A stretch of 64,000 nucleotides of DNA, taken from the NCBI GenBank assembly GCA_963721165.1, contig CAVRIE010000009.1:19800-83799 (forward strand), given 5' to 3'. The notes below the pieces were generated by a model, which saw only the letters and a program-made list of their open reading frames with translations, had not been told where the DNA came from and made no database searches. Shown here piece after piece: positions 10,402-58,811 of this stretch (positions within the stretch are counted from its first letter, which is position 1; each line of letters begins with the position of its first letter). A program made the position numbers and the translations under genes. Source of the DNA: an uncultured Actinomycetota bacterium (lineage in GTDB: Bacteria > Actinomycetota > Actinomycetes > Propionibacteriales > Nocardioidaceae).

Positions 10402-10434
10402 GCGGTGGTTGGTTTCGACAGGCTCAACCACCGC
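10402..10434. repeat. REP-like palindromic element (GGTTTCGACAGGCTCAACCA type)
   Basis: gcggtggttg-gtttcgacaggct-caaccaccgc; related copy at 63905-63928. Confidence 0.7.
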
Positions 10435-12437: not shown

Positions 12438-14142
12438 TTAGCGTTCGCTAACTCGCGGCTGCATGTACACGGCGAGCATGCAGACGTCGTCGGCCCGGGT
12501 CGGGGACTCGAGGAGCGCCGTCTTCGCCCGCGCGCACATCTCCGCGGCGCTGGTCACGCCATGATCCCCGAGGGCGCCGGCGAGGGCGTCGAGGCCCTGC
12601 CCGAGTCGAGCGCCCCCTGTCCTCCACGAGACCATCGCTGAAGAGCAGGAGCCCCGAGCCGGGCGGCAGGTGATGAGTGGCGACGTCGTACTCCGCGTCG
12701 TCCGCGACCCCGAGCATCAGCCCGCCTGCACTGCTGAGGTACTCCGGCCCGCCGGGGCTTGTCATGACCGGCGGCGGGTGACCGGCGTTGGCGTAGGTCA
12801 GCTCGCCGGTGTTCACGTCGAGGACGCCGAGGAACACCGTGGCCATCGCCTCGGGCAGGAGCCGGGCAGTGCGGCGTTGGTCCGCTCCAGCACCCGGCCC
12901 GGGCGCGGGTCGTCGACGGCGAAGGCGCGTAGCGCGTTGCGGACCTGGTTCATGGCCGAGGCCGAGGCGAGGTTGTGCCCCACCACGTCACCGATCACGA
13001 CACCGAGCAGCCCCTCGCCGAGCGGGAACGCGTCGTACCAGTCCCCGCCGACCTCGACACCCTCGGTGGCCGGAAGGTAGACCACGGCGAGGTCCACGCC
13101 CGGGACGCTCGGCAGCTCGTCGGGAAGGACCGAGCGTTGGAGGACCTCCGACACGCTGTGGTCACGGGCGAACGTGTCGACGTTCGTGAGCCCGACGCTG
13201 ATCCGGCGGCCGAGCTCCTCCGCTACGGCCAGGTCGAACTCGCTGAACACGGGCCGCTCGTGCGATCGCCCGAGCACGAACACGCCCAGGTGCTCCGCTC
13301 CCTGCGTGAGCGCGATGGCGATGAAGCTGCCGGCGTTCAGCTGGTCGGCCACCTCGCCGAGGCGGGGATCCAGCTCGGGCCACGAGGCGCGGTGCGCCGC
13401 GACGTCCTGGACCAGCTGGCTCTTCCCGGTCAGGTAGGCCGCCTGGAACGCGACGCTGTTGCCCGGCGAGATGGGGTCATCGAGCAGGCGACTCCAGGAC
13501 CGCCGTAGCCGCTGGGTCGCGATGCACCGCGGCGGTGGCACGCAGGCTGTCGTCCTCGGTCGGCAGGAACACGGCGGCGAGGTCGGCGACCGAGGGGACG
13601 ACGAGCCGCGTGACCTGGTCGAGCATGTCCTCCCGGCTGTGCGTGGCAGCGACGAGGGCGCCGGCACCGAGGAGAAGGTTCAGCTGCTCCTCGGCGTTCT
13701 GTGCCTCGAGCTGGGCGGCGTGGGCCGACGCGACGAGCTCGGCGCGCTCCTCCTCGGCTCGCTGCCGTTCGGACAGGTCGGCCAGGAAGACGATCCAGGT
13801 GAGCGGCTCGTGCTCGACGACGGCGGCTCCCAGGAGCACCGGGACCCTCCGGCCGGACCGGTGGAAGAACTCCTTCTCGAAGGGTTCGCAGGCGCCGGTG
13901 CTCCGTAGCTGATCGACCGCGACCACGTCGCGCTCGACCCACTCGGGAGGGGTCATCGCCTTCCAGTCCACCCCGTCTGTCGCCAGGTCCTCGCGGCTGT
14001 AGCCGATCATGTCGAGGAAGGCGTCGTTCGCGTCGAACACCCGGTCCTCGTTCGCGACCGCGATCGCCAGCACGTTCGAGTCCCTGAGGCGCGCGAGCAG
14101 GCTGTCCCGGTCGCGCAGCTCCGCGGTGGTGAGCCGGGTCAC
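12438..14142 (-). CDS. PAS-GAF-PP2C (SpoIIE) phosphatase; about 3 frameshifts
   Basis: GTG 14142 with GGAGGGAGG RBS; PAS (DANDAFLDMIGYSREDL, EKEFFHRSGRRVPV), GAF, VGGDWYD, VIGDVVGH, NAGHPPP, FSDGLVE, RADDVCML in successive ORFs 13477..14241, 12813..13667, 12448..12846, 12438..12635. Confidence 0.85.
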
Positions 14143-14179: not shown

Positions 14180-15799
14180 TCACTCAGCCTGGGCGATCTC
14201 GGCGTGCTCCTCACGCAGCTCCCGCTTGAGGATCTTGCCACTGGGGTTCTTCGGCAGCGCCTCGGCGATGACCACGCGCTTGGGGGTCTTGTAGCCCGCG
14301 AGGTGCTTGCGGGCGTGCTCGATGACGTCCTGCTCGGTCAGCGACGCGTCGGGCTTGGGTACGACGACCGCCACGACCGCCTCGATCCACCGCGGGTGGC
14401 TCACGCCGAACACCGCGACCTCCGCGACGCTGTCGAGCTGGTAGATCGCCTCCTCGACCTCGCGGCTCGCGACGTTCTCGCCGCCGGTCTTGATCATGTC
14501 CTTCTTGCGGTCCACGACGGACAGGCGGCCGTCCTCGTCGAGGAAGCCGAGGTCGCCGGAGTGGAACCACCCGTTGCGGAACGCCTCCGCGGTCTTCTCC
14601 TCGTCCTTGTAGTAGCCGAGCATCGCGTGCGGGCTGCGGTGCACGATCTCGCCGACCGTGCCGGGCGGCACCGGGTTGTCGTCGTCGTCGACGACCCGGG
14701 TCTCGACGTTGAGCGCGGCCCGCCCGGCCGAGCCCGCGTGGCTGAGCTGCTCCTCGGGGCCGAGGATCGTGGCGAGCGGCGCCATCTCGGTCTGGCCGTA
14801 GAAGTTCCACAGCCGCACGTTCGGCAGCCGCTCCCGGAGCTCGTTGAGCACCTCGACCGGCATCGCCGAGGCGCCGTAGTAGCCCTTGCGGAGGCTCGAC
14901 AGGTCCGTGTTGTCGAAGTCCGGGCAGCGCAGCAGCGCGATCCACACGGTCGGCGGCGCGAACAGCTTCGTCACGTGCTCGGTCTCGATCGTGCGGAGCA
15001 GGGCCGCCGGGTCGGGGCCCGGGAGGATGATGCTGGTCGCGCCGAGGTACATGTCCGGGCCGAGGAAGCAGTCGAGCTGCGCGCAGTGGTACAGCGGGAG
15101 CGAGTGCACCTCGACGTCGCCGGACTCCATGCCGCCGTCGACGATGCAGGAGACGTACTGCCACATCAGCGACCGGCTCGAGAGCTCGGCGCCCTTGGGC
15201 CGCGACTCGGTGCCGCTGGTGTACATCAGCCGCAGCGGGGCGTCGTCCTCCACGATCACCGTGGGCGCCTCGCCGTCGTGCTCGAACCAGGTGCGTACGT
15301 CGACCCAGCCGTCGGGCCCGCCGTCCGCCGCCTCGGCCGACCCGGACCCGATCACCGCCTTGATGCGGACCGACCCGGCCGCCGCGGAGCTCAGCGCCGC
15401 CTCGGCGGTCTTGACCAGGGCCTCCTCCACGACGAAGGCCGAGGACTCGCTGTGGTCGAGGATGTAGGCGATCTCGTCGGGGCCGAGCATGAAGTTGACC
15501 GGCACGAGGGTCACGCCGAGCCGCGCGGTCGCGAAGCTCAGCACGACGAACTGCCAGCAGTTGTGGGAGAGCAGCGCGAGACGGTCGCCCTTCTGCAGGC
15601 CCGCGGCGTCGAGCGCGGCCGTCGTACGGCTGATGAGTGCCTCGAGCTCGGCGAAGGTGAGCCGGGTGTCCCCGTCGACGAGGGCGAGCTTGTCGGGGAA
15701 CCGGTTGGCGGTGCGACGCGGCAGGTCGCCGAGCGCCTGGTGGCGGGCCTGAGGGATCAAACCCTGAGGGATCAAACCCTGAGCGATCAGTGACGACAT
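14180..15799 (-). CDS. Fatty acyl-CoA synthetase (AMP-binding)
   Basis: MYTSGTESRPKG, FYGQTE, WFHSGDLG, DRKKDMIKTGGENV, PKNPSGKILK. Confidence 0.93.
   Translation of the reverse strand: MSSLIAQGLIPQGLIPQARHQALGDLPRRTANRFPDKLALVDGDTRLTFAELEALISRTTAALDAAGLQKGDRLALLSHNCWQFVVLSFATARLGVTLVPVNFMLGPDEIAYILDHSESSAFVVEEALVKTAEAALSSAAAGSVRIKAVIGSGSAEAADGGPDGWVDVRTWFEHDGEAPTVIVEDDAPLRLMYTSGTESRPKGAELSSRSLMWQYVSCIVDGGMESGDVEVHSLPLYHCAQLDCFLGPDMYLGATSIILPGPDPAALLRTIETEHVTKLFAPPTVWIALLRCPDFDNTDLSSLRKGYYGASAMPVEVLNELRERLPNVRLWNFYGQTEMAPLATILGPEEQLSHAGSAGRAALNVETRVVDDDDNPVPPGTVGEIVHRSPHAMLGYYKDEEKTAEAFRNGWFHSGDLGFLDEDGRLSVVDRKKDMIKTGGENVASREVEEAIYQLDSVAEVAVFGVSHPRWIEAVVAVVVPKPDASLTEQDVIEHARKHLAGYKTPKRVVIAEALPKNPSGKILKRELREEHAEIAQAE
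15748..15790. repeat. 15-bp tandem repeat cctgagggatcaaac (2 full copies + 1 degenerate) in the 5' end of the synthetase
   Basis: Encodes LIAQGLIPQGLIPQ on the minus strand. Confidence 0.8.
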
Positions 15800-15809
15800 G
15801 GTGTGCTCC

Positions 15810-17246
15810 TCAGCTCTGACGGATGGTGACCTGCCGGCCGATCAGCCGGAGCAGGAGATAACCCACGATGGCAGCAACCAGGCTGCCGAGCAGGATGCCG
15901 AGCTTCGCCACCTCGATCACGGCACCGTCCTTGAAGGCCAGGTTGGCGACGAAGATGGCGACGGTGAAGCCGATGCCGGCCGTCGCGGAGACGCCGAGCA
16001 GGTGGGCCTGGGTCATGCCGGAGGGGTACCTCGCGAGCCGGAGCCTCACCATCAGCCACGAGGCGCCGAAGATCCCGATCGTCTTGCCGAGGACGAGGCC
16101 GAGGGCGATGCCGAGCACCACCGGGTCGGCGAGCCACTCGCTCACCGGCACGTCGGGGAACGGGAGTCCTGCGTTGGCGAAGGCGAACAGCGGGACGATG
16201 CCGAAGGCGACGTACGGCGCGAGCACGGTCTCGTTGCGGTGCAGCGGCGACTGGGTCTCGAGGGTGAGCCGCCGGATCTCGCGGAGCGTGTGGTCGTTCG
16301 CCTCGTGCTCGTCGGCGGTGACCACGCCGTCGGCGTTGCGGTCGACGACCTCGTTGACCAGGCGGGTGGCGACGTCGGGGTAGAGGTTCGGCGGCAGCAG
16401 CGCGAAGGCCGGCGTGATCAGGCCGAACGCGACGCCGATGATCGTGGCGTGGACGCCTGACTCGTGGAGGGCGTACCACCCGATGCCGCCGAGCAGGATG
16501 TAGGCGCCGATCGCCCGGACCCGCGCCCGCTGCAGGAAGAGGGCGGCGACCACGGTGGCGGCCGCGACGAGCAGCCAGACGATCGACACCCCGCCGGTGT
16601 AGAAGATCGCGATCACGAGGATCGCGCCGAGGTCGTCCACGATCGCCAGCGTGAGCAGGAACAGGCGCGCGCCGAAGGGCACCCGGCTGCCCAGCGAGGT
16701 GAGCACGGCGACCGCGAAGGCGATGTCGGTGGCCATCGGGATGCCCCAGCCGCTCAGGTGCGGGCCGCCGGCGTTGAAGGCCACGTAGATCGCCGCGGGC
16801 GCGAGCATGCCGCCGACCGCGGCGACGATCGGCAGCGCCGCGGCCTTCGGGTCGCGCAGCTCCCCGAACACCAGCTCCCGCTTGATCTCCAGGGAGACCA
16901 GCAGGAAGAACAGCGTCATCAGGCCGTCGTTGACGACCTCGCGGAGCGTGAGGTCGAGCAGGTGGAGGTCGCCGACGTGGAACACGAGGTGGCTCTCCCA
17001 GAAGCGCTCGTAGTCCGCGTAGAGCGGCGTGTTGGCGATGACCAGGGCGGCGACGGTGGCGAGCAGGATGACGACCGCGCTGCTGGTCTCGATCTGCATC
17101 AGGTTCTGCAGCGGCCGCACCAGGCGCCGGGGGACGAAGCGGTCCGTCTCGCGCCAGCTGGGCGCAGCGAACTGCCGTGCCCCTTCGGTGGGCGCCCCTT
17201 CGGTGGGCCCCCCTGAGGTGGGCGCTGTCTCGGGCGGCATCGTCAC
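15810..17246 (-). CDS. nhaA: Na+/H+ antiporter NhaA
   Basis: VNDGLMTLFFLLVSLEIKRE, GIPMATDIAF, LAIVDD, GIGFTVAIF. Confidence 0.93.
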   Translation of the reverse strand: MTMPPETAPTSGGPTEGAPTEGARQFAAPSWRETDRFVPRRLVRPLQNLMQIETSSAVVILLATVAALVIANTPLYADYERFWESHLVFHVGDLHLLDLTLREVVNDGLMTLFFLLVSLEIKRELVFGELRDPKAAALPIVAAVGGMLAPAAIYVAFNAGGPHLSGWGIPMATDIAFAVAVLTSLGSRVPFGARLFLLTLAIVDDLGAILVIAIFYTGGVSIVWLLVAAATVVAALFLQRARVRAIGAYILLGGIGWYALHESGVHATIIGVAFGLITPAFALLPPNLYPDVATRLVNEVVDRNADGVVTADEHEANDHTLREIRRLTLETQSPLHRNETVLAPYVAFGIVPLFAFANAGLPFPDVPVSEWLADPVVLGIALGLVLGKTIGIFGASWLMVRLRLARYPSGMTQAHLLGVSATAGIGFTVAIFVANLAFKDGAVIEVAKLGILLGSLVAAIVGYLLLRLIGRQVTIRQS

Positions 17247-17303
17247 TTCCTAAGCAGGCAGGGTCCCTTCAGGTTATCGACCCGGATCATCGGCCGGGGT
17301 CGG

Positions 17304-17897
17304 TCATCGGCCCGTGGCGCCGACGATCCGCAGGGCCAGGTCGCTGTAGTGGCGGGCGATCTGGTCGGGGGTCCATTCGCCCTCGTCGCGGTACCACCGC
17401 GCGACGTCGATGCCCAACGACAGCAGCGCGAGCGCCGTCATGTGCGGGTCGGGCGTCTCGAAGACCCCCGCCGCGACGCCGCGCTCGACGACGTCGCGCA
17501 TCTCCTGCTCGATCTGGCGCCGGATCGCCGCGATCTCCTCGAGGTGCTCCGGCGAGAGCGCGGCGAGCTCGTAGTTCACGATGCGGGCGCCGGTGTGGTC
17601 CTCGGCGTGGTAGACGACGAAGGCGTGTACGACGGCCAGCAGCTGCTCGCGGGGGTCGCGCGAGGTGGCCACGGCCTCCCGCACCAGCGCGAGGGTCTTC
17701 TCGTGACCCGCGCGGCTGATCTCGTGGAGCAGCTCCTCCTTGGAACGGTGGTGCACGTAGAGCGCGGCGGGGCTCATCCCGGCGCCCGAGGCGATGTCCC
17801 TGGTCGACGTACCGTGGAAGCCCTTGGCCGCGAACGACTCCACCGCCGCGGCCCGGAGCCGGGCGCGGGCATCAGGTGGTTGACGGATCTGCTCCAC
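17304..17897 (-). CDS. TetR-family regulator
   Basis: FAAKGFHGTSTRDIASGAGMSPAALYVHHRSKEELL; GTG at 17897. Confidence 0.9.
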   Translation of the reverse strand: MEQIRQPPDARARLRAAAVESFAAKGFHGTSTRDIASGAGMSPAALYVHHRSKEELLHEISRAGHEKTLALVREAVATSRDPREQLLAVVHAFVVYHAEDHTGARIVNYELAALSPEHLEEIAAIRRQIEQEMRDVVERGVAAGVFETPDPHMTALALLSLGIDVARWYRDEGEWTPDQIARHYSDLALRIVGATGR

Positions 17898-17907
17898 CTG
17901 AGGAACG

Positions 17908-17943
17908 CTAAGCGAACGCTTAGGGGCTAAGCAAGCGCTTAGC
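17908..17943. promoter_or_regulatory. Tandem palindromic operators CTAAGC[G/A]-NN-CGCTTAG
   Basis: ctaagcgaacgcttag (17908-17923) and ctaagcaagcgcttag (17927-17942) in the divergent tetR/SDR gap. Confidence 0.75.
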
Positions 17944-17967
17944 CGGGACATCGGAAGGGCTAGCGCA

Positions 17968-18721
17968 TTGAAGAGGTTCGAGGGCAAGGTCGCGATCGTC
18001 ACCGGAGCCAGCCGGGGGATCGGTCTCGGGATCGCGGAGCGGCTCGTCGCCGAGGGCGCGAAGGTGACCGTCACCGCACGCAAGCCCGAGGCGCTCGAGG
18101 AGGCGGCGAAGAGCCTCGGCGGACCTGATGTGGCCCTCGCCGTTGCCGGGAAGGGCGACGACGTCGAGCACCAGGCCGACGCGATCCGCCAGACCATCGA
18201 GACCTTCGGCAGCGTCGACCTGCTGGTGAACAACACCGGCATCAACCCGGTGTACGGGCCGATGGTCGAGCTCGACCTCGGCGCCGCCCGCAAGATCTTC
18301 GAGGTCAACTGCCTGGCGGCGCTGTCGTGGGTGCAGCAGGCGTACAAGGCGTGGATGGGCGAGCACGGCGGCTCGGTCGTCAACGTGTCGTCCGTCGGCG
18401 GGCTCAAGCCGGCTCCCGGGCATCGGGTTCTACGGCGCCAGCAAGGCGATGCTGAACCACATCACCCAGGAGCTCGCCGTCGAGCTCGGCCCCGACATCC
18501 GGGTGAACGCGGTCGCCCCTGCCGTGGTGAAGACCAAGTTCGCGACCGCGCTCTACGAGGGCCGCGAGGACGAGGTGTCCGCGACCTACCCGCTCAAGCG
18601 GCTCGGTGTCCCGGAGGACATCGGCAGCGTGGTGGCGTTCCTGCTGTCCGAGGACGCGGCGTGGCTGACCGGCCAGGTCGTCGTGATCGACGGCGGGCTC
18701 ACGCTCACCGGCGGCGTCTGA
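17968..18721 (+). CDS. SDR oxidoreductase (DHRS4-like); frameshift near 18420
   Basis: TGASRGIG, NNTGINPVYGP, then IGFYGASK when reframed, IRVNAVAPAVVKTKFA. Confidence 0.88.
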
Positions 18722-18722
18722 C

Positions 18723-19511
18723 ATGGACGTCGACGGAGCGGGCGTCGTCGTCACCGGCGCCGGCCACGGCATCGGCCGCGCCATCGCCGAGCGGATGGCA
18801 GCCCAGGGTGCCCGCGTGGTGGTCAACGACCTCGACGGCGAGGCTGCCGAGCAGGTCGCCACGGCGATCGGCGGCGGCCTCGCCGTGCCCGGTGACGCCG
18901 CGTCCGAGGAGGGGGTCGCGGAGCTCGTCGCCGCGGCGCGCGACCACCTCGGCAGGATCGACGTCTACTTCGCCAACGCCGGCATCGACGTCGGCCAGGG
19001 CCTCGGCGCCCCCGAGGACGACTGGGCGCGCGCGGTCGACGTCAACGTGATGGCACACGTGCGGGCCGCGCGGCAGCTCGTGCCGACCTGGCTCGAGACC
19101 GGCGGCGGGCGCTTCGTCGTCACGGCGTCGGCGGCCGGGCTCCTCACGATGCTCGGCAGTCCGGTCTACTCGGTCACCAAGCACGCCGCGGTGGGCTTCG
19201 CGGAGTGGCTCTCGGCCACCTACGGCCACCGCGGGATCGTCGTACAGGCGATCTGCCCCCAGGGCGTCCGCACGCGGATGCTGGAGGAGGCCGGCCCGCT
19301 CCAGGAGCTGCTCTCCCACGACACCGCGCTCGAGCCGGAGCAGGTCGCCGACACGGTGTTCCACGCCCTGCAGGACGACCGGTTCCTGATCCTGCCGCAC
19401 CCGGAGGTCGCGGAGTACTACAAGCTCCGCGCGAGCGACACGGACCGCTGGCTGGCCGGGATGCGGAAGCTGCAGCGGCGGCTGGACGAGGCGACGGGCG
19501 CGGCCGAGTGA
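18723..19511 (+). CDS. SDR oxidoreductase
   Basis: TGAGHGIG, NAGI, TASAAGL, YSVTKHA. Confidence 0.9.
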   Translation: MDVDGAGVVVTGAGHGIGRAIAERMAAQGARVVVNDLDGEAAEQVATAIGGGLAVPGDAASEEGVAELVAAARDHLGRIDVYFANAGIDVGQGLGAPEDDWARAVDVNVMAHVRAARQLVPTWLETGGGRFVVTASAAGLLTMLGSPVYSVTKHAAVGFAEWLSATYGHRGIVVQAICPQGVRTRMLEEAGPLQELLSHDTALEPEQVADTVFHALQDDRFLILPHPEVAEYYKLRASDTDRWLAGMRKLQRRLDEATGAAE

Positions 19512-20527
19512 CCCCCGCCGAGCTCCCCGGCCTGGACCTCGACCGGTTCCGCACGTTCTTCGAGAAGGCCTGCCCGGGCGAGGTCACCGGGCCGCTGACC
19601 GGTTCGCTCGTCGCGGGCGGCAAGTCCAACCTGACCTACATCGTCGGCGACGGCCACCGCGAGTGGGTGGTGCGACGCCCGCCGCTCGGCCACGTGCTGG
19701 CCACCGCGCATGACATGACGCGGGAGTACCGCGTGATGACCGCGCTCCGGGACACCGACGTCCCCGTGCCCAGGACGTACGCCCTGTGCGAGGACGAGTC
19801 CGTGACCGGAGCGCAGTTCTATGTGATGGAGCGCGTGCACGGGACGCCGTACCGCACTGCCGCGGAGCTGGAGGCCCTGGGCCCGGAACGGACGGCCGCG
19901 ATCTCGCGAAGGACCGTCGAGACCCTCGCCACCCTGCACTCGGTCGACCCGGCCGCGGTCGGGCTGGCGGACTTCGGGCGGCCGGAGGGCTTCCTCGAGC
20001 GGCAGGTCCGCCGCTGGAAGAAGCAGCTCGACGCCTCGCACAGCCGCGACCTGGCCGGCGCCGACGAGCTGCACGCCCTGCTCGCCGCGAACATCCCGGC
20101 CGAGCAGACCCCGGCGATCGTGCACGGCGACTACCGCCTCGACAACCTGCTCGTCGACTCCCAGGACCGGATAGCCGCGGTCATCGACTGGGAGATGGCC
20201 ACGCTCGGCGACCCGCTGACCGACGTCGCGCTGATGGTCGTCTACCACCGCCTCGCCGCCCTCGACGCCGCTGTGGCCGACGCGTCGACGGCCGCCGGCT
20301 TCCTCAGTGAGGCCGACACGATCGAGCTGTACGGCTCACGGAGCGGGCGCGACCTGTCGGCCATGGGGTTCTACCTCGGGCTCGCCGCCTTCAAGCTCGC
20401 GGTGATCCTGGAGGGCATCCACTTCCGCTACACCCAGGGCCAGACCGTGGGCGAGGGGTTCGACTCCGTCGGCGCCTCCGTCGAGCCCCTGATCAACGCA
20501 GGCATCACCTCGCTGAAGGAGAACTGA
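19508..20527 (+). CDS. APH-family phosphotransferase (ACAD10/11 kinase-like, LvaA-like)
   Basis: GGKSNLTY, RRPPLG, AHDMTREY, VHGDYRLDN, IDWEMATLGDPLTD; GTGA overlap at 19508. Confidence 0.9.
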   Translation: MTPAELPGLDLDRFRTFFEKACPGEVTGPLTGSLVAGGKSNLTYIVGDGHREWVVRRPPLGHVLATAHDMTREYRVMTALRDTDVPVPRTYALCEDESVTGAQFYVMERVHGTPYRTAAELEALGPERTAAISRRTVETLATLHSVDPAAVGLADFGRPEGFLERQVRRWKKQLDASHSRDLAGADELHALLAANIPAEQTPAIVHGDYRLDNLLVDSQDRIAAVIDWEMATLGDPLTDVALMVVYHRLAALDAAVADASTAAGFLSEADTIELYGSRSGRDLSAMGFYLGLAAFKLAVILEGIHFRYTQGQTVGEGFDSVGASVEPLINAGITSLKEN

Positions 20528-20528
20528 C

Positions 20529-21766
20529 ATGGAGTTCGCGTACGACGCCCGCACCGAGGAGCTCCGCGAGCAGCTGCTCGCGTTCATGGACGAGCACATC
20601 TACCCGAACGAGGCGCTCTTCCACGAGCAGCTCGACGCGCTCGAGAACAAGTGGGACTGGACCTCCGCGCCGGTGATGCAGGAGATCCGGGCCGAGGGCA
20701 AGAAGCAGGGGCTCTGGAACCTCTTCCTCCCCGGCGAGCACGGCGCCGGCCTCACGAACCTGCAGTACGCCCCGCTCGCCGAGATCACCGGCCGCTCCGG
20801 CCACCTCGCGCCCGCCGCCCTCAACTGCGCCGCCCCGGACACCGGCAACATGGAGGTGCTCGCGCAGTTCGGCAGCGAGGAGCAGAAGGAGCGCTGGCTG
20901 TCGCCGCTGCTCGACGGCACGATCCGCTCGGCGTTCGCGATGACCGAGCCGGACGTGGCCTCCTCCGACGCGACGAACATCAGCACCACGATCGAGCGCG
21001 ACCTTCGACGGCTGGGACCAACGGCGGATATGTCCTCAACGGCCGCAAGTGGTGGATCACCGGGGCGATGGCTCCCGCCTGCGAGATCTTCATCGTGATG
21101 GGCAAGACCGACTCATCAGCCGACAGGCACCGGCAGCAGTCGATGATCCTGGTCCCGCGCGACGCCCCCGGCCTCGTCGTGAAGCGCGGCATGGAGGTCT
21201 TCGGGTACGACGACCACGAGCACGGCGGCCACGCGGAGCTCGAGTTCAACGACGTCCGCGTCCCCGCCTCGAACCTGATCGGCGAGGAGGGCACCGGGTT
21301 CGCCATCGCGCAGGCCCGCCTCGGCCCCGGCCGGATCCACCACTGCATGCGCGCGATCGGTGTCGCCGAGCGGGCGATCGAGCTGATGTGCAAGCGGTCG
21401 GTCGAACGGGTCGCGTTCGGCAAGCCTCTTGCGAGCCAGGGCGTCGTGCGCGAGTGGATCGCGGAGTCGCGGGTGAAGATCGAGCAGCTGCGCCTGCTCG
21501 TGCTCAAGACCGCCTGGCTGATGGACACCGTCGGCAACAAGGGCGCGCACACCGAGATCCAGGCGATCAAGATCGCCACCCCCGAGACCGTCCAGTGGAT
21601 CCTCGACAAGGCGATCCAGGTGCACGGCGGCGGCGGCCTGTCCCAGGACTTCCCGCTGGCCCAGCAGTTCGCCGGCATCCGCACGCTCCGCTTCGCCGAC
21701 GGCCCGGACGAGGTCCACAAGATGTCCCTGGCCCGCAGGGAGATCAAGAAGCAGGTGGGGCTGTGA
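20529..21766 (+). CDS. Acyl-CoA dehydrogenase (ACAD10/11-like, LvaC-like); frameshift near 21002
   Basis: [74 protein letters not shown]. Confidence 0.9.
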
Positions 21767-22975
21767 GCTCGCCTGCCGCGAGGACGTTCGCCGCGACCTC
21801 GCGGAGCGGGTCGAGAAGCTGCTCTCGTCGTGCCCGCCTGCCTCCACGGACCGGCTGGAGTTCCTCCGCGCCCGCTTCGACGCGGGGCTCGCGTGGGTGC
21901 ACTTCCCCGAAGGGCTCGGCGGGCTCGGGCTCGCGCGTGGCTTCCAGCAGTACGTCGAGCAGCTGCTCGCCGAGGCCGGGGCGCCGGACAACGAGCCGCG
22001 CAAGATCGGGATCGGCCTCGGCATGGCCGCACCCACGATCCTGGCCTTCGGCACCGAGGAGCAGAAGCAGCAGTTCCTCCGCCCGTTGTGGACCGGCGAG
22101 GAGGTGTGGTGCCAGCTGTTCAGCGAGCCCGGCGCCGGGATCCGACCTCGCCGCGCTCGCGACGCGGGCGGTCCGTCACGGCGACGGGCCCGACGCGACC
22201 TGGGTCGTGAACGGGCAGAAGGTCTGGACGTCGAGCGCCCACAAGGCACAGCGGGCGATCCTCGTGGCGCGCACCGACCCGGATGCGCCCAAGCACAAGG
22301 GCATGACGTACTTCCTCGCCGACATGACCGACCCCGGCGTCGACGTACGACCGTTGCGCCAGCTCACCGGCGAGGCGGAGTTCAACGAGGTCTTCCTCTC
22401 CGACGTACGCATCCCCGACGCCCACCGCCTCGGCGAGGTAGGCGACGGCTGGAAGGTCGCGAACGCCACGCTGATGAACGAGCGTGTCGCGATCGGCGGG
22501 CACGCCGCACCGCGCGAGAGCGGGATGATCGGCCGAGGTCGCGGAGACGTGGCGTTCACGCCCGGAGCTGCGCACGCCCGGGATGCATGACCGGCTGATG
22601 TCCGGCTGGGTCGAGTCGGAGGTCTTCCGGCTGACCGGCGCGCGCCTGCGGCAGAAGCTCGCGGTCGGGGCGCCGGGCCCCGAGGGCTCCGCGATGAAGC
22701 TGACCTTCGCCCGGCTCGCCCAGGAGCTCAGCGGGCTCGAGGTCGAGCTGCTCGGCGAGGACGGCCTGCGTTACGGCGACTGGACGATGACCCGGCCCGA
22801 GCAGGTCGACTTCACCGGTCGCGACGCCGGCTACCGGTACCTCCGTGCCAAGGGCAACTCCATCGAGGGCGGCACCTCGGAGATCCTGCGCAACATCGTC
22901 GCGGAGCGGGTCCTCGGCCTGCCGACCGAGCCGCGCGTCGACAAGGACATCCCGTGGAAGGAGATCCCGCGATGA
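21763..22975 (+). CDS. Acyl-CoA dehydrogenase; frameshifts near 21775, 22140, 22545
   Basis: [19 protein letters not shown] + [45 protein letters not shown]. Confidence 0.85.
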
Positions 22976-24225
22976 GCTCGGACCTCAACCTGCTCTACAC
23001 CGACGTCGAGGACGACCTGCGCTCGTCGGTGCGGGACCTGCTCTCGTCGCGTTGCCCTGCTGACGCGGTGATCGCGATGTACGACGGCGACCGCTCGCTC
23101 GTCGCGCCCCTGTGGCGGTCGCTGGCCGTCGAGCTCGGGCTGGCGGGGCTGCTCGTGCCGGAGTCCTTCGGCGGTGCCGGGGCTTCTGCTCGGGAGGCGG
23201 CGGTCGTGCTCGAGGAGCTCGGCCGGTTCGCCGCGCCGGTGCCGTTCCTGACCAGCTCGGTCGTCGCCACCGCGGTGCTCGGCGGTGGGTCGCCTGCCGG
23301 TTCCGTGCACGTGCACGGTTTTGACGGCGGAGCGGCCGGATCGCGCGTCGATTCCGGGCAGGTGCACGATTCTGGCGAGGGAGCGGCCGGATCGCGCGTC
23401 GATCCCGTGCATGTGCACGATTCTGGCGAGCTGGGTGCCTCCTTGCTCGCGGAGTTGGCGGCGGGGGAGCGTACGGCGGCCCTGGCGGTGCCGCTGGCGG
23501 CGAGCCCCTGGTCCTTCGAACCCACTGTCACCGCGTCAGGCGATGCGCTGACCGGCCGGGTGACCTCGGTGGCGGGTGCGCTGGAGGCGGATGTGCTGCT
23601 GGTGCCGGTCGCCGTGGACGGGGGCGGCTCGGCCGGGGTCGAGGTGCGCGCGGTCGACGCTGCGGACGCCGAGATCACGCCGGTGACCTCCCTCGACATG
23701 ACGCGCCAGGTCGCCGACGTGTCGTTCGACGGCGCGTCGTCGCGGGTCGTCGTACCCGCAGACTCCGGCGCAGCCGCGGTGCGGAACGCCCTCCAGGTGG
23801 GAGCCGCGCTGATGGCGTCCGAACAGGTCGGTGTCGCGCAGTGGTGTCTCGACACGACGGTGGCGTACCTCAAGGAGCGGCGCCAGTTCGGCCGCGTCGT
23901 GGGCGGCTTCCAGTCGTTGAAGCACCGCCTCGCGGACCTGTACACGCTGGTCGAGCAGGCTCGTGCCGCAGCGCGCTACGCCGCAGCCACGGTCGCGGAG
24001 GGCGACCCGGACCAGGAGGTCGCGGCTTCGGTGGCCCAGGCGTACTGCTCCGACGTCGCCGTGAAGGCGGCCGAGGAGTGCGTGCAGCTGCACGGCGGGA
24101 TCGGCATGACCTGGGAGCACCCGGCGCACCTGTACCTCAAGCGCGCCAAGGCGGACCAGATCGCCTTCGGCACGCCGGGGGCGCACAGGGCCCACCTCGG
24201 CGAGCTCGTCGACCTGCCCGCCTGA
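22972..24225 (+). CDS. Acyl-CoA dehydrogenase with about 50-aa repeat-derived insertion
   Basis: LEELGR, SLDMTR, ERRQFGRVVGGFQSLKHRLAD, VQLHGGIGMTWEH. Confidence 0.9.
   Translation: MSSDLNLLYTDVEDDLRSSVRDLLSSRCPADAVIAMYDGDRSLVAPLWRSLAVELGLAGLLVPESFGGAGASAREAAVVLEELGRFAAPVPFLTSSVVATAVLGGGSPAGSVHVHGFDGGAAGSRVDSGQVHDSGEGAAGSRVDPVHVHDSGELGASLLAELAAGERTAALAVPLAASPWSFEPTVTASGDALTGRVTSVAGALEADVLLVPVAVDGGGSAGVEVRAVDAADAEITPVTSLDMTRQVADVSFDGASSRVVVPADSGAAAVRNALQVGAALMASEQVGVAQWCLDTTVAYLKERRQFGRVVGGFQSLKHRLADLYTLVEQARAAARYAAATVAEGDPDQEVAASVAQAYCSDVAVKAAEECVQLHGGIGMTWEHPAHLYLKRAKADQIAFGTPGAHRAHLGELVDLPA
23303..23430 (+). repeat. In-frame copy of the 51-bp GTGCACGATTC repeat family
   Basis: Palindrome ccgtgcac|gtgcacgg (23303-23318); units start at 23311, 23362, 23413; homologous to 56246-56413. 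Confidence 0.85.
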
Positions 24226-24283
24226 CCGGCCCCTCCGCCGTACCCACGGGCCCACCTTCGAGCGGGTCGGCCGAGGCAGGCGC

Positions 24284-24679
24284 TCAGGCTATTCGGCGGC
24301 CGGTGATGTCGCGCCAGCGAATCCTCACGTAGAGCGCTCGCGGACCGGCGGCCCAGGGCCCCGGCTCGTGGGCCCAGCGGATCTGCTCGATCTCCTCGAT
24401 GTCCTCGACGATCTCGCCGCGGCCGACCACCACCACGCTCCAGCCCGTGCGGGTACTCGTGTCGATGCTGTCGACCTCGAAGGCGATGTCGCCGGACCAG
24501 CCGTAGGTGCCGAGCACGCTGTAGGGCGTGGTGCGGAAGACGACCGAGTCCTCGTGGATGCTGAAGTTGACCGGTACGACATGGGGACCGGTGGGGGTGC
24601 AGATCGCCGCGCGTCCCACGACCTGCGCGCTGATCAGCTCCTTGCATTCGTCGGCGGAGAGCTCCACGAGTACGCCCAT
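24284..24679 (-). CDS. Pyridoxamine 5'-phosphate oxidase-like FMN-binding protein
   Basis: ELSADECKELI, VGRAAI, PHVVPVNF, VFRT, FEVD, GWSVVVVG. Confidence 0.85.
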   Translation of the reverse strand: MGVLVELSADECKELISAQVVGRAAICTPTGPHVVPVNFSIHEDSVVFRTTPYSVLGTYGWSGDIAFEVDSIDTSTRTGWSVVVVGRGEIVEDIEEIEQIRWAHEPGPWAAGPRALYVRIRWRDITGRRIA

Positions 24680-24827
24680 GACGTGCCCCCTCCCTGCTAT
24701 AGCCCTGCGGCTCCAGCATCCGGCCGCCGGCCGTGGTCCCGGATGAGGCGAAAGGCCCGGCGCGACCTGCCGGTGGTCCAGGGTTCCGTCGTATGCTGCC
24801 GCGACCGCGAACCACATGGAGGCCTGG

Positions 24828-25760
24828 ATGCCCGTCGACCCGCACATCGCGCCGCTGCTCGAGCTGCTCGCCACCGTCCCGCCGATGAGCGAGGGATCGC
24901 CGGAGGCGGCTCGTGAGGCGTTCCGCCGGCTCACCGTCGAGGGCCGCCGGCCGGAGCAGGTGGTGCAGGTCGGTTCGGTCGAGGACACGACCATCCCCGG
25001 TCCGGCGGGAGACCTGGCAGCGCGGGTCTACCGTCCCTCGGCGGAGGGCCCGCTCCCGACGGTGATGCTCTTCCACGGCGGCGGCTGGGTGATCGGCGAC
25101 CTCGACACCCACGACAGCATGGCGCGCAGCATCTGCCGCGACTGCGACGCGGTCGTGGTGTCGGTCGACTACCGGCTCGCGCCGGAGGCGCCGTTCCCCG
25201 CGGCGGTGGACGACGCGCTCGCCGCGACGCGGTGGGTCGCCGACCGCCTGGCCGACTTCGGCGGTGACGCCCGGCTGGCTGTTGCAGGCGACAGCGCGGG
25301 CGGCAACCTCGCCGCCGTCGTGGCGCAGCAGCTCCGCGACTCAGGCGGCCCGACCCTGGCGGCGCAGCTCCTCGTCTACCCGGCCACCGACGTGAGCGGC
25401 GACTTCGCCTCGCGGACCGAGAACGCCGAGGGGTACTTCCTCGACCTCCCGACGATGGTGTGGTTCATGGAGCACTACGCCGCCGACGCCGCCGCGCACG
25501 AGGACCCGCGGCTGTCTCCGCTGCGCCACCCTGACCTCTCCGGCCTGCCGCCGGCGGTCATCGTCACCGCGGAGTACGACCCGCTGCGCGACGAGGGGGA
25601 GGCCTACGCCACCGCGCTGACCGAAGCCGGTGTGGAGGTCGACGTACGACGGTTCGACGGGATGATCCACGGGTTCTTCGACATGGGCGCCTACTCACCC
25701 GGGGCGCAGGCGGCCGTCGACGAGTCCTGCGCGATGTTCGCCAAGCTGCTGTCCCGGTAG
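24828..25760 (+). CDS. HSL-family lipase/esterase
   Basis: FHGGGW, VDYRLAPE, GDSAGGNL, YDPLRDEG, HGF. Confidence 0.93.
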   Translation: MPVDPHIAPLLELLATVPPMSEGSPEAAREAFRRLTVEGRRPEQVVQVGSVEDTTIPGPAGDLAARVYRPSAEGPLPTVMLFHGGGWVIGDLDTHDSMARSICRDCDAVVVSVDYRLAPEAPFPAAVDDALAATRWVADRLADFGGDARLAVAGDSAGGNLAAVVAQQLRDSGGPTLAAQLLVYPATDVSGDFASRTENAEGYFLDLPTMVWFMEHYAADAAAHEDPRLSPLRHPDLSGLPPAVIVTAEYDPLRDEGEAYATALTEAGVEVDVRRFDGMIHGFFDMGAYSPGAQAAVDESCAMFAKLLSR

Positions 25761-39647: not shown

Positions 39648-41553
39648 TCAGCCGTTGCGGCGGCTGCGGGCTGCGCTGCGGGCGCGCAGACTCTGGTCGA
39701 GCACGACCTTGCGGATCCGCACCGACTCCGGCGTGACCTCGACGCACTCGTCCTCGCGGCAGAACTCCAGGCACTGCTCGAGCGAGAGCTTCTTCGGCGG
39801 GATCAGCTTCTCGAAGTTGTCCGACGTGGAGGAGCGGACGTTGGTCTGCTTCTTCTCCTTGGTGATGTTGACGTCCATGTCGTCCTCGCGAGAGTTCTCG
39901 CCGACGATCATGCCTTCGTACACCTCGGTGGTCGGCTCGATGAACATCGTGCCGCGCTCCTGCAGGTTGGTCATGGCGTACGCCGTCGCCGCTCCCGCCC
40001 GGTCGGCCACCAGGGAGCCGGAGGCGCGGGAGCGGATCTCGCCGGCCCACGGCTCGTAGCCCTCGAACACGTGGTGCGCGATGCCGGTGCCGCGGGTGTC
40101 GGTGAGGAACTCGGTGCGGAAGCCGATCAGGCCACGCGCGGGCACGAGGAACTCCATCCGGACCCACCCGGTGCCGTGGTTGGTCATCTGCTCCATGCGG
40201 CCCTTGCGGACGGCGAGGAGCTGGGTGATCGTGCCGAGGTACTCCTCGGGCGCGTCGATGGTCAGCCGCTCCACGGGCTCGTGGATCTTGCCGTCGATCT
40301 CGCGGGTGACCACCTGCGGCTTGCCGACGGTGAGCTCGTAGCCCTCACGCCGCATCTGCTCGACCAGGATCGCGAGCGCGAGCTCACCACGGCCCTGGAC
40401 CTCCCAGGCGTCGGGGCGCTCGGTCGGGAGGATCTTGATCGACACGTTGCCGACGAGCTCGGCGTCGAGGCGGTCCTTGACCAGGCGGGCGGTGACCTTG
40501 GAGCCCTTGACCCGGCCGGCGAGCGGCGAGGTGTTGGTGCCGATGGTCATCGAGATCGCCGGCTCGTCGACCGTGATCAGCGGCAGCGCGCTTCGGGTCG
40601 TTGGGGTCGGCGAGGGTCTCGCCGATCATGATGTCGGGGATGCCGGCGATGGCGACGATGTCACCGGGGCCGGCGGACTCGCCCGCCTTGCGCTCGAGGC
40701 CCTCGGTCACGAGGAGCTCGGTGATCTTGACGTTCGACACGGACCCGTCACGCTTCATCCACGCGACCTGCTGGCCCTTCTTGAGGGTGCCCTCCTTGAC
40801 GCGCACCAGCGCGAGGCGGCCCAGGAACGGGCTCGAGTCGAGGTTGGTCACGTGCGCCTGCAGCGGCGCGTCCTCGTGGTACACCGGGGCCGGGATGGTC
40901 TCGATGATGGTCTGGAACAGCGGCTCGAGGTTCTCGCTGTCGGGCAGCCCGCCGTTGTCCGGCAGCTTCAGCGACGCGCGGCCGGCCTTGGCGCTGGCGT
41001 AGACCACCGGGAAGTCGAGTGCCTCGGCGTTGTGGCTGTCGTCGAGCAGGTCCATGAACAGCTCGTAGGTCTCGTCGACGACCTCGCTGATCCGTGCGTC
41101 GGCGCGGTCCACCTTGTTGACGACGAGTACGACGGGCAGGTCGGCGTTGAGGGCCTTGCGGAGCACGAACCGGGTCTGGGGGAGCGGACCCTCGGACGCG
41201 TCCACGAGCAGCACGATGCCGTCGACCATGGACAGGCCGCGCTCGACCTCGCCGCCGAAGTCCGCGTGACCGGGGGTGTCGATGATGTTGATCGTCATCG
41301 CGCCGCCCTCGACGGACTGCGCGGCCTCGCCGGTGTACCGGATCGCGGTGTTCTTCGCGAGGATCGTGATGCCCTTCTCGCGCTCGAGGTCGCCGGAGTC
41401 CATGGCGCGCTCGTCGACGTGCTGGTGCTCGCCGAAGGCGCCGCCCTGCCACAGCATCGCGTCCACGAGCGTCGTCTTGCCGTGGTCGACGTGCGCGACG
41501 ATTGCGACGTTGCGCAGGTCGGAGCGGCTCTTGCGGGTGGTGTTCTCGGACAT
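39648..41553 (-). CDS. typA: Translational GTPase TypA/BipA; +1 frameshift near 40591
   Basis: LRNVAIVAHVDHGKTTLVD, EREKGITILAK, DTPGHADFGGEVER, NKVD, VQGRGELAL, LSLEQCLEF..EDECVEVTP. Confidence 0.96.
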
Positions 41554-41711
41554 GCGGCTGCGAACTCTGCTTTCGGGTTGAGGCTCCGGCGCGACGTCAT
41601 ACGACGGGGTCGGTGTTGCGACCAGGGTGGACGCCGCTGCGGAAAGACACTCCATTCTACCGGCGGGAGGGGCGTGAGCCGAATCGCGCGCTCGTCGTAC
41701 TGTCAGGAGGC

Positions 41712-42686
<975 letters not shown>

Positions 42687-42690
<4 letters not shown>

Positions 42691-45811: not shown

Positions 45812-48522
45812 GTGCGTCTCGCCCCCACCGATCCTCTCCCCGCTGCCTGCTCCCGGCTCCGGGCGCGGTGCCGTTCGCGGCCCGGCTCGCGCAGTTCGGC
45901 GACCGGGTCGCGGTGCGTACGTCGGGGGAGACGCTCACCTACGCCGAGCTCGCCCGGCTGGTCGCGCGGCGCGCTGAGCTCCTCGGCGGCACCCGTCGGC
46001 TGGTGCTCGTCGCGGGTGCCAACCGCCTCGACGCGCTCGTCACCTACCTGGCCGCCCTCTCCGCGGGCCATCCGGTGATCCTCGTGCCCGGCGACAACCC
46101 CGGGAACCTCGAGGCGGTCGTCCGGGCCTACGACCCCGACGTCGTCGCGGGACCTGACGGTGAGCTCGCCGAGCGGCGGCCCGGCACCGCCCACGACCTG
46201 CACCCCGACCTCGCGCTCCTGCTGTCCACCTCCGGCTCCACCGGCTCGCCCAAGCTGGTGCGGCTCTCCGCCGAGAACGTCCAGGCCAACGCCGCGTCGA
46301 TCGCGTCCTACCTCTCCATCCGGCCCTCCGACGTGGCGGCGACGACGCTGCCGATGCACTACTGCTACGGGCTGTCGGTCATCAACAGCCACCTGCTCGT
46401 CGGCGCCTCGCTCATGCTCACCTCGCTGTCGGTGGTCGACGGCTGCTTCTGGGACGAGTTCCGTGACGCGGGGGCCACGACGTTCGCGGCGGTGCCGTAC
46501 ACCTTCGACCTGCTCGACCGGGTCGGCTTCGACGCCATGGACCTGCCCTCGCTGCGCTACGTCACCCAGGCCGGCGGCCGCCTCGCGCCCGAGCGGGTCC
46601 GCCGCTACGCCGAGCTCGGCCGGAGCCGGGGGTGGGACCTGTTCGTGATGTACGGCCAGACCGAGGCCACCGCGCGGATGGCCTACCTCCCTCCGGACCT
46701 CGCGCTGACCTCGCCGGGCGCGATCGGCGTGCCCGTGCCGGGTGGGTCGTTCCGCCTGGAGCCGCTGCCGGAGGTGCCGCTGACGCGCAGGGGTGCGCCG
46801 GACGTGGGGGAGCTGGTCTACGACGGGCCGAACGTGATGATGGGCTACGCCGAGTCGCCGGCCGACCTCGCCCTGGGGCGGGTCACCACGTCGTTGCGGA
46901 CCGGTGACGTCGCCCGTCGTACGCCCGAGGGGCTGTTCGAGATCGTCGGCCGCCGCAACCGGTTCGCCAAGGTCTTCGGGCTGCGGATCGACCTCGACGA
47001 GGTGGAGCGGGTGTACGCCGACGAGGGGATGCTCGTCGCGTGCGCCGCGGCCGAGGGCGCCTCGGGGGAGCGGCTCGTGGTCGCGGTCTCCGACGACGCC
47101 GGCCCGGTCGACGTCACGCGGGTCGCGGCCGTGGCGAAGGAGCACGTCGGCCTGCCACCCGGGGCCGTCGCCGTGTGCCCCGTGCGCGAGGTGCCGCGGC
47201 TGCCCAACGGCAAGCCGGACTACCGCGCGGTGGCCGCTCTCGCGGTGGGTCAATACCCAGGTATGTCGGAACTGCTCTCGACGGCGAGCTTGCCACGGGA
47301 GGAGCAGTCCCCGCATCCCTGGTAACTCGCCAGACCCCGGTACGACGGGCGCGCGGCTGCGCGAGGTCTACGCGGAGGTGCTCCGGCGCGACGTCGTCCG
47401 CGACGAGGACACGTTCGTGTCGCTGGAGGGCGACTCGCTGTCCTACGTCGAGATGTCGATCCGGGTGGAGGAGGTGCTCGGCCACCTCCCGCCGAACTGG
47501 CACGTCACGCCGATCGGGGAGCTCGCCCCCCGCGAGGGGCGGGCCCGACCCGGCCGGTCGCTCGAGATGAACGTGCTGCTGCGAGCCCTGGCGATCATCG
47601 CGATCGTCGGCACGCACGCCAACCTCTTCGTCGTCCTCGGCGGCGCACACGTCCTGCTCGGTGTCGCCGGCTTCAACTTCGGCCGGTTCCACCTGACCGG
47701 CGCTCCGCGCGCCGAGCGGGTACGCCACCTCGCGTCGAGCATCACCCGGATCGCGGTGCCCTCGGTCGTCGTCATCGGGGTCGTCGCGGCGTTCACCGAG
47801 GGGCTCGGCTGGCGCAACGCCCTCCTGCTCAACGGCGTCCTGGGGTCGCGCGGTTGGACCGAGCCCGCCTGGCACTACTGGTTCATCGAGGCACTGCTCT
47901 ACACGCTGGTCGCACTCACCCTCGTCATCGCGTTGCCGGTCGTGGACCGGGCCGAACGCCGATGGCCGTTCTGGGTGCCGATGACGCTTTCCTGCGCTCG
48001 GGTTGCTCGACGCGCTACGAGATGGTCGAGGTCATGGGCGGCGACGTCATCCACCGCGCGAACGTCGTGTTCTGGCTGTTCGCGCTCGGCTGGGCGACGG
48101 TGAAGGCCGCCACGACGTCGCAGCGGGTCCTCGTCACGGTCGTCCTGGTCGCGAGCGTCCCCGGCTTCTTCGACGACCTGGCGCGTGACGCGGTCGTCGT
48201 CGCGGGCCTGCTCGCGCTCGTCTGGGTCCGCGCGGTCCGGGTGCCCGCGTGGGCTGCTCGCCTCACCGGCACCCTCGCGAGCGCCTCGCTCTACGTCTAC
48301 CTGGTGCACTGGCAGGTCTACCCGTACCTCGAGGACGAGGTGCCGTGGCTCGCGACGGTGCTGTCCCTCCTCGCCGGCATCGTGGTGTGGCAGGCCGTGG
48401 ACCGGGTCACCCCGCCCGTCGTACGCCTTGCCCGCGAAGCGGCCTCCCGGGGCGTCATCACCGCTGCAACGGTCCGCGAAGAGTGGCGTTGGGGGAATGG
48501 GGAACAATCTCGCGTGGTTTGA
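45812..48522 (+). CDS. NRPS-like adenylation - carrier protein - membrane acyltransferase (AT3-like); frameshifts near 45845, 47250-47330 and 47990
   Basis: A motifs [32 protein letters not shown]; carrier [11 protein letters not shown]; AT3-like [27 protein letters not shown] in ORFs 45805..47325, 46904..48103, 47854..48522. Confidence 0.8.
48494..48519 (+). promoter_or_regulatory. SigR/SigH-type promoter upstream of mshA
   Basis: GGAAT-N18-GTT exact spacing. Confidence 0.7.
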
Positions 48523-56236: not shown

Positions 56237-56413
56237 ATCGTGCACGTGCACGATTCTTGCGCCGCGAGCGACCGGATCGGCGTCGAACCTTCGCAGGTGC
56301 ACGATTCTTGCGCGGCGAGCGACCGGATCGGCGTCGAACCTTCGCAGGTGCACGATTCTTGCGCGGCGAGCGACCGGGTCGGCGTCAAACCTTCGCACGT
56401 GCACGATTCTTGC
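56237..56413 (+). repeat. 51-bp repeat family, right cluster: 18-bp palindrome + 3 full units + 1 partial
   Basis: atcgtgcac|gtgcacgat (56237-56254); units start at 56246, 56297, 56348, 56399. Confidence 0.95.
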
Positions 56414-58577: not shown

Positions 58578-58811
58578 GGCTCGCAGTATCGACCACCCGG
58601 CCGGTCGATGGGTGGACCACCCCGCGATTCGCAGGGAAACACAGGGGATTCGGTCGGTTCGTCATGTCCGGTAGTCGGGTGCCGAGGCCCCGCGACGCAC
58701 ACGAATCGGTCATCTGTCAAGCCCCGATTTGGCCTCTGACCTGCGCAAACGCCAAAAGGGCCGGCTCGGATGACGTGTTAGACTAGTCACCTAGGAAGGG
58801 GTACTTGGCAC

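Follow-up and report, generated by a model that had tools for sequence, protein, structure and literature searches.

What chemistry is served by an operon in which two short-chain dehydrogenases/reductases (SDRs), an APH-fold kinase and three acyl-CoA dehydrogenases (ACADs) follow one another almost without a gap? The question is raised by positions 17968-24225 of a 64,000-nucleotide stretch of DNA (the window; contig C9:19800-83799, about 70% G+C). This stretch belongs to a genome assembly of 18 contigs and 4.36 Mb (G000), whose closest named relatives are Nocardioidaceae metagenome-assembled genomes; the host is probably a soil bacterium of that family. All six genes lie on the + strand in the order SDR1-SDR2-APH kinase-ACAD1-ACAD2-ACAD3, as defined by Pfam and by codon-position G+C plots, and their Pfam content is adh_short, adh_short and APH, followed by three sets of the Acyl-CoA_dh N, M and C domains. 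The interpretation favoured here, with reasonable but far from full confidence, is a TetR-repressed catabolic operon that would ready acyl-CoAs with a C4 oxo or hydroxy substituent for the usual β-oxidation, the frameshifts seen in three of its genes being consensus errors of the assembly.

The fourth gene, ACAD1 (20529..21766, + strand), is of the ACAD10/ACAD11/LvaC type. For an intact orthologue the score is 454 bits with mouse ACAD11 and 446 with 4hr3, an ACAD of this type from Mycobacteroides abscessus, versus 162 with the best ordinary ACAD. In the window, Pfam finds the N domain in a frame different from that of the M and C domains. The C-terminal piece (21029-21766) holds R...RIHHCMR, which aligns column for column with ACAD11, and reads ADGPDEVH, with a catalytic Asp at the C-terminal base position when aligned to 8v3u (D753 of mouse ACAD11). 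Ordinary ACADs of the window read IFEGT or IYEGT at this position. The combination of an Asp base, an Arg and HCMR (R626, H634, R637 and D753 of mouse ACAD11) is unique to ACAD10/11 and LvaC and is needed for phosphate elimination, R626, H634 and R637 holding the 4-phosphate (PMC12440821). ACAD1 is thus presumed to be a phosphate-eliminating enzyme acting on 4-phosphoacyl-CoA. Its reading frame is interrupted in the G000 assembly by a 17-nt insertion at 21003-21019.

The kinase gene upstream of ACAD1 (19508..20527, + strand) is intact and encodes 339 amino acids of the ACAD10/ACAD11 type (Pfam APH 3.6e-57). Its best match in the Protein Data Bank (PDB) is 9o56 (1.5e-63), followed by 3dxp (2.9e-57) and the kinase domain of mouse ACAD11 (5.8e-49). 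Family features are the Asp and Asn of the catalytic loop (HxDxxxxN) and a metal-binding DWE motif (PMC12440821; preprint 10.1101/2025.09.10.675409); the corresponding stretches of the window kinase, IVHGDYRLDN (HGDxxxxN) and VIDWEMATLGDP (DWE), align to both ACAD11 and 9o56. From these motifs the protein is presumed to be a 4-hydroxyacyl-CoA kinase. Kinase and ACAD1 together carry every sequence feature examined for the ACAD10/11 type, except an unbroken ACAD1 frame. A second APH-fold kinase paralogue, 37% identical, is encoded elsewhere in the genome (G000:C10:331546-332427, - strand); no second ACAD10/11-type ACAD was found with the query used.

A preliminary description of this DNA had assigned to the APH kinase and the ACAD10/11-type ACAD the conversion of 4-hydroxyacyl-CoA via 4-phosphoacyl-CoA. 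At the level of sequence this assignment is supported by the difference between 454 and 162 bits, by the Arg, HCMR and Asp residues of ACAD1, and by the HGDxxxxN and DWE motifs of the kinase. Its account of gene content, gene order and tight coupling also agrees with Pfam and with the gene junctions, although three of the six genes (SDR1, ACAD1 and ACAD2) are not open frames in the sequence at hand.

Mammalian ACAD10 and ACAD11 are the nearest characterized counterparts (mouse ACAD11, 8v3u/8v3v; PMC12440821, PMC11342911). Both of their catalytic domains are matched by the window kinase and ACAD1, and the chemistry is presumably shared: 4-hydroxyacyl-CoA to 4-phosphoacyl-CoA to 2-enoyl-CoA. The differences lie in arrangement. 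ACAD10/11 is one fused protein, whereas the window has two separate, translationally coupled genes; this pair is set among two SDRs and an α2β2 ACAD, under a TetR-family regulator; and in this genus the operon lacks a HAD domain or gene, while a HAD gene occurs in 16 of 80 other actinobacterial loci. In Burkholderia pseudomallei, a member of another phylum, the ACAD10/11-type kinase (Q63VL0) and ACAD are also separate proteins, and either of them can substitute for the corresponding ACAD10 domain in vitro; the ACAD step is independent of an external electron acceptor (PMC11342911). By homology and from its conserved catalytic residues, the window kinase would phosphorylate the 4-hydroxyl with ATP. 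ACAD1, given its family-defining active-site residues, would then eliminate the phosphate through a transient oxidation dependent on flavin adenine dinucleotide (FAD), elimination and reduction, yielding 2-enoyl-CoA.

The last two genes look as if they encode the α and β subunits of a single heterotetrameric ACAD, similar in type to ChsE4-ChsE5. ACAD2 (21763..22975, + strand; three Pfam domains in three frames) has as its best solved relatives the α chains Tcur3483 (6wy9_A) and ChsE4 (4x28_A); ACAD3 (22972..24225, + strand; frame open) has the β chains Tcur3481 (6wy8_A) and ChsE5 (4x28_D). An alignment (A1) shows complementary losses. ACAD2 retains the catalytic Glu (IEGGT) and the SEPGAGSD flavin motif and has lost R..FG....Q; ACAD3 has Phe or Leu in the Glu column (IAFGS, VALGT or IAFGT) and no AGSD, and retains R..FG....Q. 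Known α2β2 ACADs are encoded by adjacent genes and only one subunit keeps the catalytic Glu (PMC8399759); the α subunit binds the flavin ring and the β subunit the ADP-ribose part of FAD (PMC11153573). The motif loss in ACAD2 and ACAD3 fits the published α/β signature and points to one enzyme of two subunits, in which ACAD2 would provide the active site and ACAD3 the other half of the FAD site.

Comparison with the solved and characterized members, ChsE4-ChsE5 (FadE26-FadE27, 4x28), Tcur3481-Tcur3483 (6wy8/6wy9), IpdE1-IpdE2 and PimC-PimD, gives the same picture: an adjacent gene pair, one subunit with the catalytic Glu and the flavin-ring motif, the other with the motif for the ADP part. The window pair differs from them in several respects. 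The catalytic Glu of ACAD2 stands where MCAD has it, at the C-terminal position; the genes next to the pair are those for a kinase and an ACAD10/11-type enzyme, not steroid genes; and similarity is low, at 105-120 bits against the solved α and β chains and below every NCBIfam cut-off (best models pimC_large for ACAD2, IpdE2 and pimD_small for ACAD3; IpdE2 183 against a cut-off of 450). ACAD3 further carries a repeat-encoded in-frame insertion of about 155 nt, or about 52 amino acids, in its N-terminal part (23289..23444, + strand). This insertion is GTGCAC-rich, and within it a 51-bp unit recurs 2.5 times (23301-23430; Tandem Repeats Finder: period 51, 87% matches). It is lacking in three congeners (G006, G004, G015) and partial or shorter in others. 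A stretch 81% identical to it lies at 56239-56363 of the window.

The two ACADs downstream of ACAD1 had previously been taken for two further enzymes, which does not hold given their solved relatives and the alignment. The suggestion attached to that view, a larger or branched substrate, gains some support in its first part, as bulky acyl-CoAs of the steroid type are the substrates for which α2β2 ACADs have been known until now. From its context, the enzyme may dehydrogenate substituted or bulky acyl-CoAs in adjoining cycles of β-oxidation.

The two SDRs would supply the hydroxyl group for the kinase. SDR1 (17968..18721, + strand) is a DHRS4-like and FabG-like short-chain reductase whose adh_short domain is divided between two frames; for the intact 250-residue orthologue of a congener (G006), the carbonyl reductase DHRS4 is the best solved relative (2e-49). 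SDR2 (18723..19511, + strand) is intact, with 262 amino acids (Pfam adh_short 1.8e-42); NCBIfam assigns it to generic SDR subfamilies only, and a search for a close solved relative found none. As judged from their context, SDR1, SDR2 or both may reduce 4-oxoacyl-CoA to 4-hydroxyacyl-CoA, or interconvert a neighbouring hydroxy or oxo group.

Translational coupling extends over the whole operon. The junctions are TGAcATG (SDR1/SDR2), GTGA (SDR2/APH), TGAcATG (APH/ACAD1), GTGA (ACAD1/ACAD2) and ATGA (ACAD2/ACAD3), each of them a 1-nt spacer or a 4-nt overlap. Divergent to the operon lies a gene for a TetR-family regulator (17304..17898, - strand; Pfam TetR_N and TetR_C_24; start uncertain, GTG at 17898 or 17930). 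It matches the acyl-CoA-responsive FasR and FadR types weakly (NCBIfam), and an orthologue stands divergent to the operon in many actinobacterial loci. An inverted-repeat search of the 70-bp tetR-SDR1 intergenic region found two tandem 16-bp palindromes, CTAAGCGAACGCTTAG and CTAAGCAAGCGCTTAG (17908..17942). Both are invariant in all eight congeneric loci compared, whereas the spacer that follows differs in length and sequence. Such a contrast is the expected appearance of a TetR operator, and the palindromes are presumed to be one.

Downstream, the operon is closed by a convergent PNPOx-like gene. Past that gene and outside the operon is an esterase of the hormone-sensitive-lipase type (LipP1 family; 24747-25760, + strand; 397 bits, above cut-off), which is kept in two congeners (G006 and G004). 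The closest AMP-binding gene in the window annotation is at 14180-15841 on the opposite strand, past nhaA and tetR. Scans of 17250-24800 for sigma-70 promoters and intrinsic terminators gave no hits, a result that is uninformative for an actinobacterium of 70% G+C.

The conservation of the operon was surveyed at two depths. Most of 18 sampled congeners have the six-gene operon, at 78-90% nucleotide identity. Among 151 sampled genomes of the phylum (unpublished G031, G048, G078, G112 and G118 included, none of which carries a claim by itself, and related genomes not being independent), 68 carry both the kinase and an ACAD1-type gene, 9 the kinase only, 3 the ACAD only and 71 neither. The two genes are adjacent in at least 14 sampled genomes besides G000.

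A wider set consisted of 80 named actinobacterial loci whose kinase is 60-95% identical to the window kinase (Nocardia, Streptomyces, Amycolatopsis, Prauserella, Micromonospora, Actinomadura, Terrabacter, Cryobacterium, Pimelobacter simplex and others). Their proteins were clustered into families, and extra families were assigned by Pfam. The kinase family is present in 76 loci, ACAD1 in 59, a MaoC hydratase in 42, a third SDR (SDR3) in 39, ACAD2 in 34, ACAD3 in 33, SDR2 in 32, SDR1 in 31, a HAD phosphatase in 16, a thiolase in 12 and a Zn-ADH-type reductase (ZnADH) in 11. The fullest form (L082, L084, L118) reads TetR | thiolase-SDR1-SDR2-ZnADH-HAD-SDR3-MaoC-APH-ACAD1-ACAD2-ACAD3. Other taxa show rearranged but linked orders: ACAD1-ACAD2-ACAD3, ACAD2-ACAD3-APH, APH-ACAD2-ACAD3-ACAD1 and SDR1-APH-ACAD2-ACAD3. 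Because the modules are shuffled and yet stay linked, the three of them appear to act together. Compared with the longer operon, which occurs widely in Actinomycetota, the six-gene form is a shortened version.

Genes of the longer form bear on the likely substrate. Eight or nine Amycolatopsis loci add a lactonase of the phosphotriesterase family and a CoA ligase; in L124, L126, L128, L131, L135, L140 and L152 the lactonase-like gene and an AMP-forming ligase adjoin SDR3-MaoC-APH-ACAD1-ACAD2-ACAD3. This addition fits an entry of γ-lactones into the pathway. The longer and lactonase-bearing operons suggest medium- or long-chain hydroxy and oxo fatty acids and γ-lactones as substrates, beyond levulinate. 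The HAD protein of the longer form has its best solved relatives in the lipid-phosphatase domain of soluble epoxide hydrolase. Together with the kinase and ACAD genes of that form, the HAD gene parallels the three domains of mammalian ACAD10. In G000 itself, possible orthologues of the thiolase, SDR3 and MaoC are encoded at other sites; a search for a HAD orthologue gave none at E < 1e-20.

In the literature searched, there was no account of a conserved linkage to an α2β2 ACAD and an SDR pair, nor of an 11-gene form with HAD. The split ACAD10/11-type kinase/ACAD core is known; its link to an α2β2 ACAD and SDRs appears to be new. A more far-reaching possibility, which we regard as speculative, is that the fullest operon is a self-contained β-oxidation line for mid-chain hydroxy and oxo fatty acids and γ-lactones, with cutin and suberin monomers or 10-hydroxy- and 10-oxostearate as candidates. 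Its α2β2 ACAD would then be the first non-steroid member of its kind, acting on acyl-CoAs with polar substituents, and its unfused HAD, kinase and ACAD might be the counterpart of the three ACAD10 domains.

Whether the operon works in this organism depends on how its broken frames are explained. The SDR1 frame breaks at about 18419 by one extra base (CCCGGG in the window, CCCCC-GG in relatives), the ACAD1 frame at 21003-21019 by the 17-nt insertion, and the ACAD2 frame twice, at about 22141 and about 22534, by one extra base each. In an eight-genome alignment these insertions of 1, 17, 1 and 1 bases are private to the window and absent from all seven congeners; all six operon genes are intact in G004, G006, G014 and others. 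The four frameshifts are most probably consensus errors of the assembly. The grounds are that gyrA and typA are also broken and that the broken genes are under purifying selection. On this view the organism itself probably carries an unbroken operon.

Broken genes were identified gene by gene, as cases in which the alignment of a G004 protein to the window runs through two or more frames; this test replaced a three-way indel count (window, G004, G014) that was too noisy, owing to intergenic and compensating gaps. G004 has orthologues of 31 window genes, and seven of these 31 are spread over two or more frames, so that four are broken besides the three of the operon. They are typA/bipA, a translational GTPase (39648-41655, - strand), split in two frames near 40590-40604 with halves matching model positions 1-291 and 289-594; a gene for an 868-residue protein with an N-terminal AMP-ligase domain (45868-48519, + strand; two shifts); an aldo-keto reductase gene (41643-42690, + strand; one shift); and a gene for a 273-residue protein (57863-58670, - strand; one shift), the last three judged against intact G004 orthologues. 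A PAS-GAF-SpoIIE (PP2C phosphatase) gene at 12438-14142 (- strand), which has no G004 orthologue, also appears split over three frames. Outside the window, the essential gyrA (G000:C10:502251-504739) is found as six consecutive pieces of the family model in different frames, with about five frameshifts in 1 kb. Two other few-contig assemblies (G003 and G015) have private single-base indels of their own in the same operon. Ratios of nonsynonymous to synonymous substitution (dN/dS) against G006 are as low in the pieces of broken genes (0.06-0.27) as in intact genes (0.09-0.14), and the correct frames show no premature stops or deletions.

Several observations weigh against the favoured reading, some through the state of the genes and some through their function. 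The former could mean that the operon is truly decaying, with four real insertions and with SDR1, ACAD1 and ACAD2 as recent pseudogenes. Frameshift density is about three times as high in the operon as in the other compared window genes (4 in 6.3 kb against 5 in about 26 kb). Nor does the 17-nt insertion belong to the single-base type of error, and with the diverged sequence right after it, it is atypical of a consensus error; one possibility is that 15 or 18 nt were truly inserted in frame and that single-base errors obscure this length. A REP-like origin of this insertion was considered and rejected: a blastn-short search of 20991-21040 against the genome returned only itself, while the palindrome at 10402-10434 has about 16 copies, and the resemblance covers about 10 bases. 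Three other genes of the same assembly, rpoB, secA and ileS, are whole. Set against gyrA in six pieces, this indicates that assembly errors are clustered. Against decay stand gyrA and typA, the further broken genes of the window, the private indels of the two other assemblies, the low dN/dS and the otherwise clean frames. Decay is accordingly judged unlikely, though it deserves to be kept in view. The assembly breaks many genes, essential ones included, and its apparent pseudogenes are not to be trusted at face value.

As to function, no CoA ligase gene is among the operon genes, and the role of the SDRs is assigned solely from context and similarity to DHRS4. According to a 2026 preprint, moreover, 1-O-alkylglycerols are phosphorylated by ACAD10 and by several prokaryotic homologues of its kinase; chimyl alcohol is reported as a substrate of ACAD10 and of several purified prokaryotic homologues, some of them only with acetyl-CoA (10.1101/2025.09.10.675409). 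The window kinase might by this account be a lipid-alcohol kinase (1-O-alkylglycerol or monoacylglycerol) and the operon a route of glycerolipid salvage. The best solved relative of the kinase, 9o56, is probably the Caldalkalibacillus thermarum ACAD10-kinase homologue of that preprint, as suggested by name, length and date. The two proteins have the catalytic Asp, the Asn and DWE in common; the C. thermarum enzyme, a reported 1-O-alkylglycerol kinase, has HYDxK where the window kinase has HGDYR. The hormone-sensitive-lipase-type esterase 0.5 kb downstream would also suit lipid salvage, but it stands past the convergent gene and is not an operon member. The kinase gene, in turn, is translationally coupled to an ACAD with a phosphate-binding HCMR site, and elsewhere it is surrounded by acyl-CoA enzymes (MaoC hydratase, SDRs, thiolase, ACADs). 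The survey in the preprint, for its part, associates the kinase with AGPS-bearing organisms. Glycerolipid salvage is for these reasons a rather improbable role.

Pseudomonas putida KT2440's lva operon (lvaABCDEFG with LvaR; PMC9399607, PMC12440821, PMC11342911) invites another comparison. Its genes likewise include those for an SDR, an APH-type kinase and an LvaC-type ACAD, so that the same three activities are predicted for the window operon, and it removes a 4-oxo or 4-hydroxy group via 4-phosphoacyl-CoA (pathway in PMC9399607); the window operon is likened to it by its genes alone. Were it a true orthologue, it would be dedicated to levulinate (4-oxopentanoate). The composition is different, however. 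LvaB, a small partner protein required with LvaA in P. putida, is lacking, and with every junction a 1-nt spacer or a 4-nt overlap no gene of LvaB size fits; the LvaE ligase and the transporters are missing from the operon; a TetR repressor takes the place of the activator LvaR; and two SDRs and an extra heteromeric ACAD are present. The preliminary description likened the operon to a levulinate-type pathway; in composition it is not an lva operon, since LvaB, an in-operon ligase and LvaR are all absent. A C5 acid would need no added α2β2 ACAD, and the longer forms with a full set of β-oxidation enzymes suggest longer chains. LvaA is only 29% identical to ACAD10/11 kinases (PMC11342911), whereas the window kinase matches them strongly. 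Dedication to levulinate has little to recommend it on this evidence.

A part in steroid or bile-acid side-chain or ring catabolism is improbable: among solved structures, steroid ACADs (Tcur3481-3483, ChsE4-ChsE5) come closest to ACAD2 and ACAD3, α2β2 ACADs are mainly known from that field and ACAD3 matches IpdE2 best in NCBIfam, but the scores are modest, as given above, ACAD2 matches best the large subunit of a non-steroid pimeloyl-CoA dehydrogenase, none of 20 annotated neighbour genes is a steroid ring or side-chain enzyme, and the conserved partners in the 80 loci are the kinase, the ACAD10/11-type ACAD, SDRs, MaoC, HAD and thiolase.

The preparation of C4-oxo and C4-hydroxy acyl-CoAs for β-oxidation thus remains the favoured role, and it would have consequences for two enzyme families. 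Work on Pseudomonas, Burkholderia and mammals has only recently elucidated the 4-hydroxy-acid route through a kinase and a phosphate-eliminating ACAD. Actinomycetota, among them Streptomyces, Nocardia, Amycolatopsis and Micromonospora, maintain both enzymes in a conserved operon with a heteromeric ACAD, several SDRs and, where the operon is longer, a HAD phosphatase and a complete β-oxidation set. Such neighbours indicate that in bacteria the ACAD10-type kinase serves acyl-CoA metabolism, and they suggest that α2β2 ACADs have a function outside steroid breakdown. Cultured carriers of the operon, for example Nocardioides terrae CGMCC 1.7056 and Pimelobacter simplex ATCC 6946, offer a route to its substrate. 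If the fullest form is indeed a self-contained β-oxidation line, bacterial genetics could settle the dispute on the function of ACAD10.

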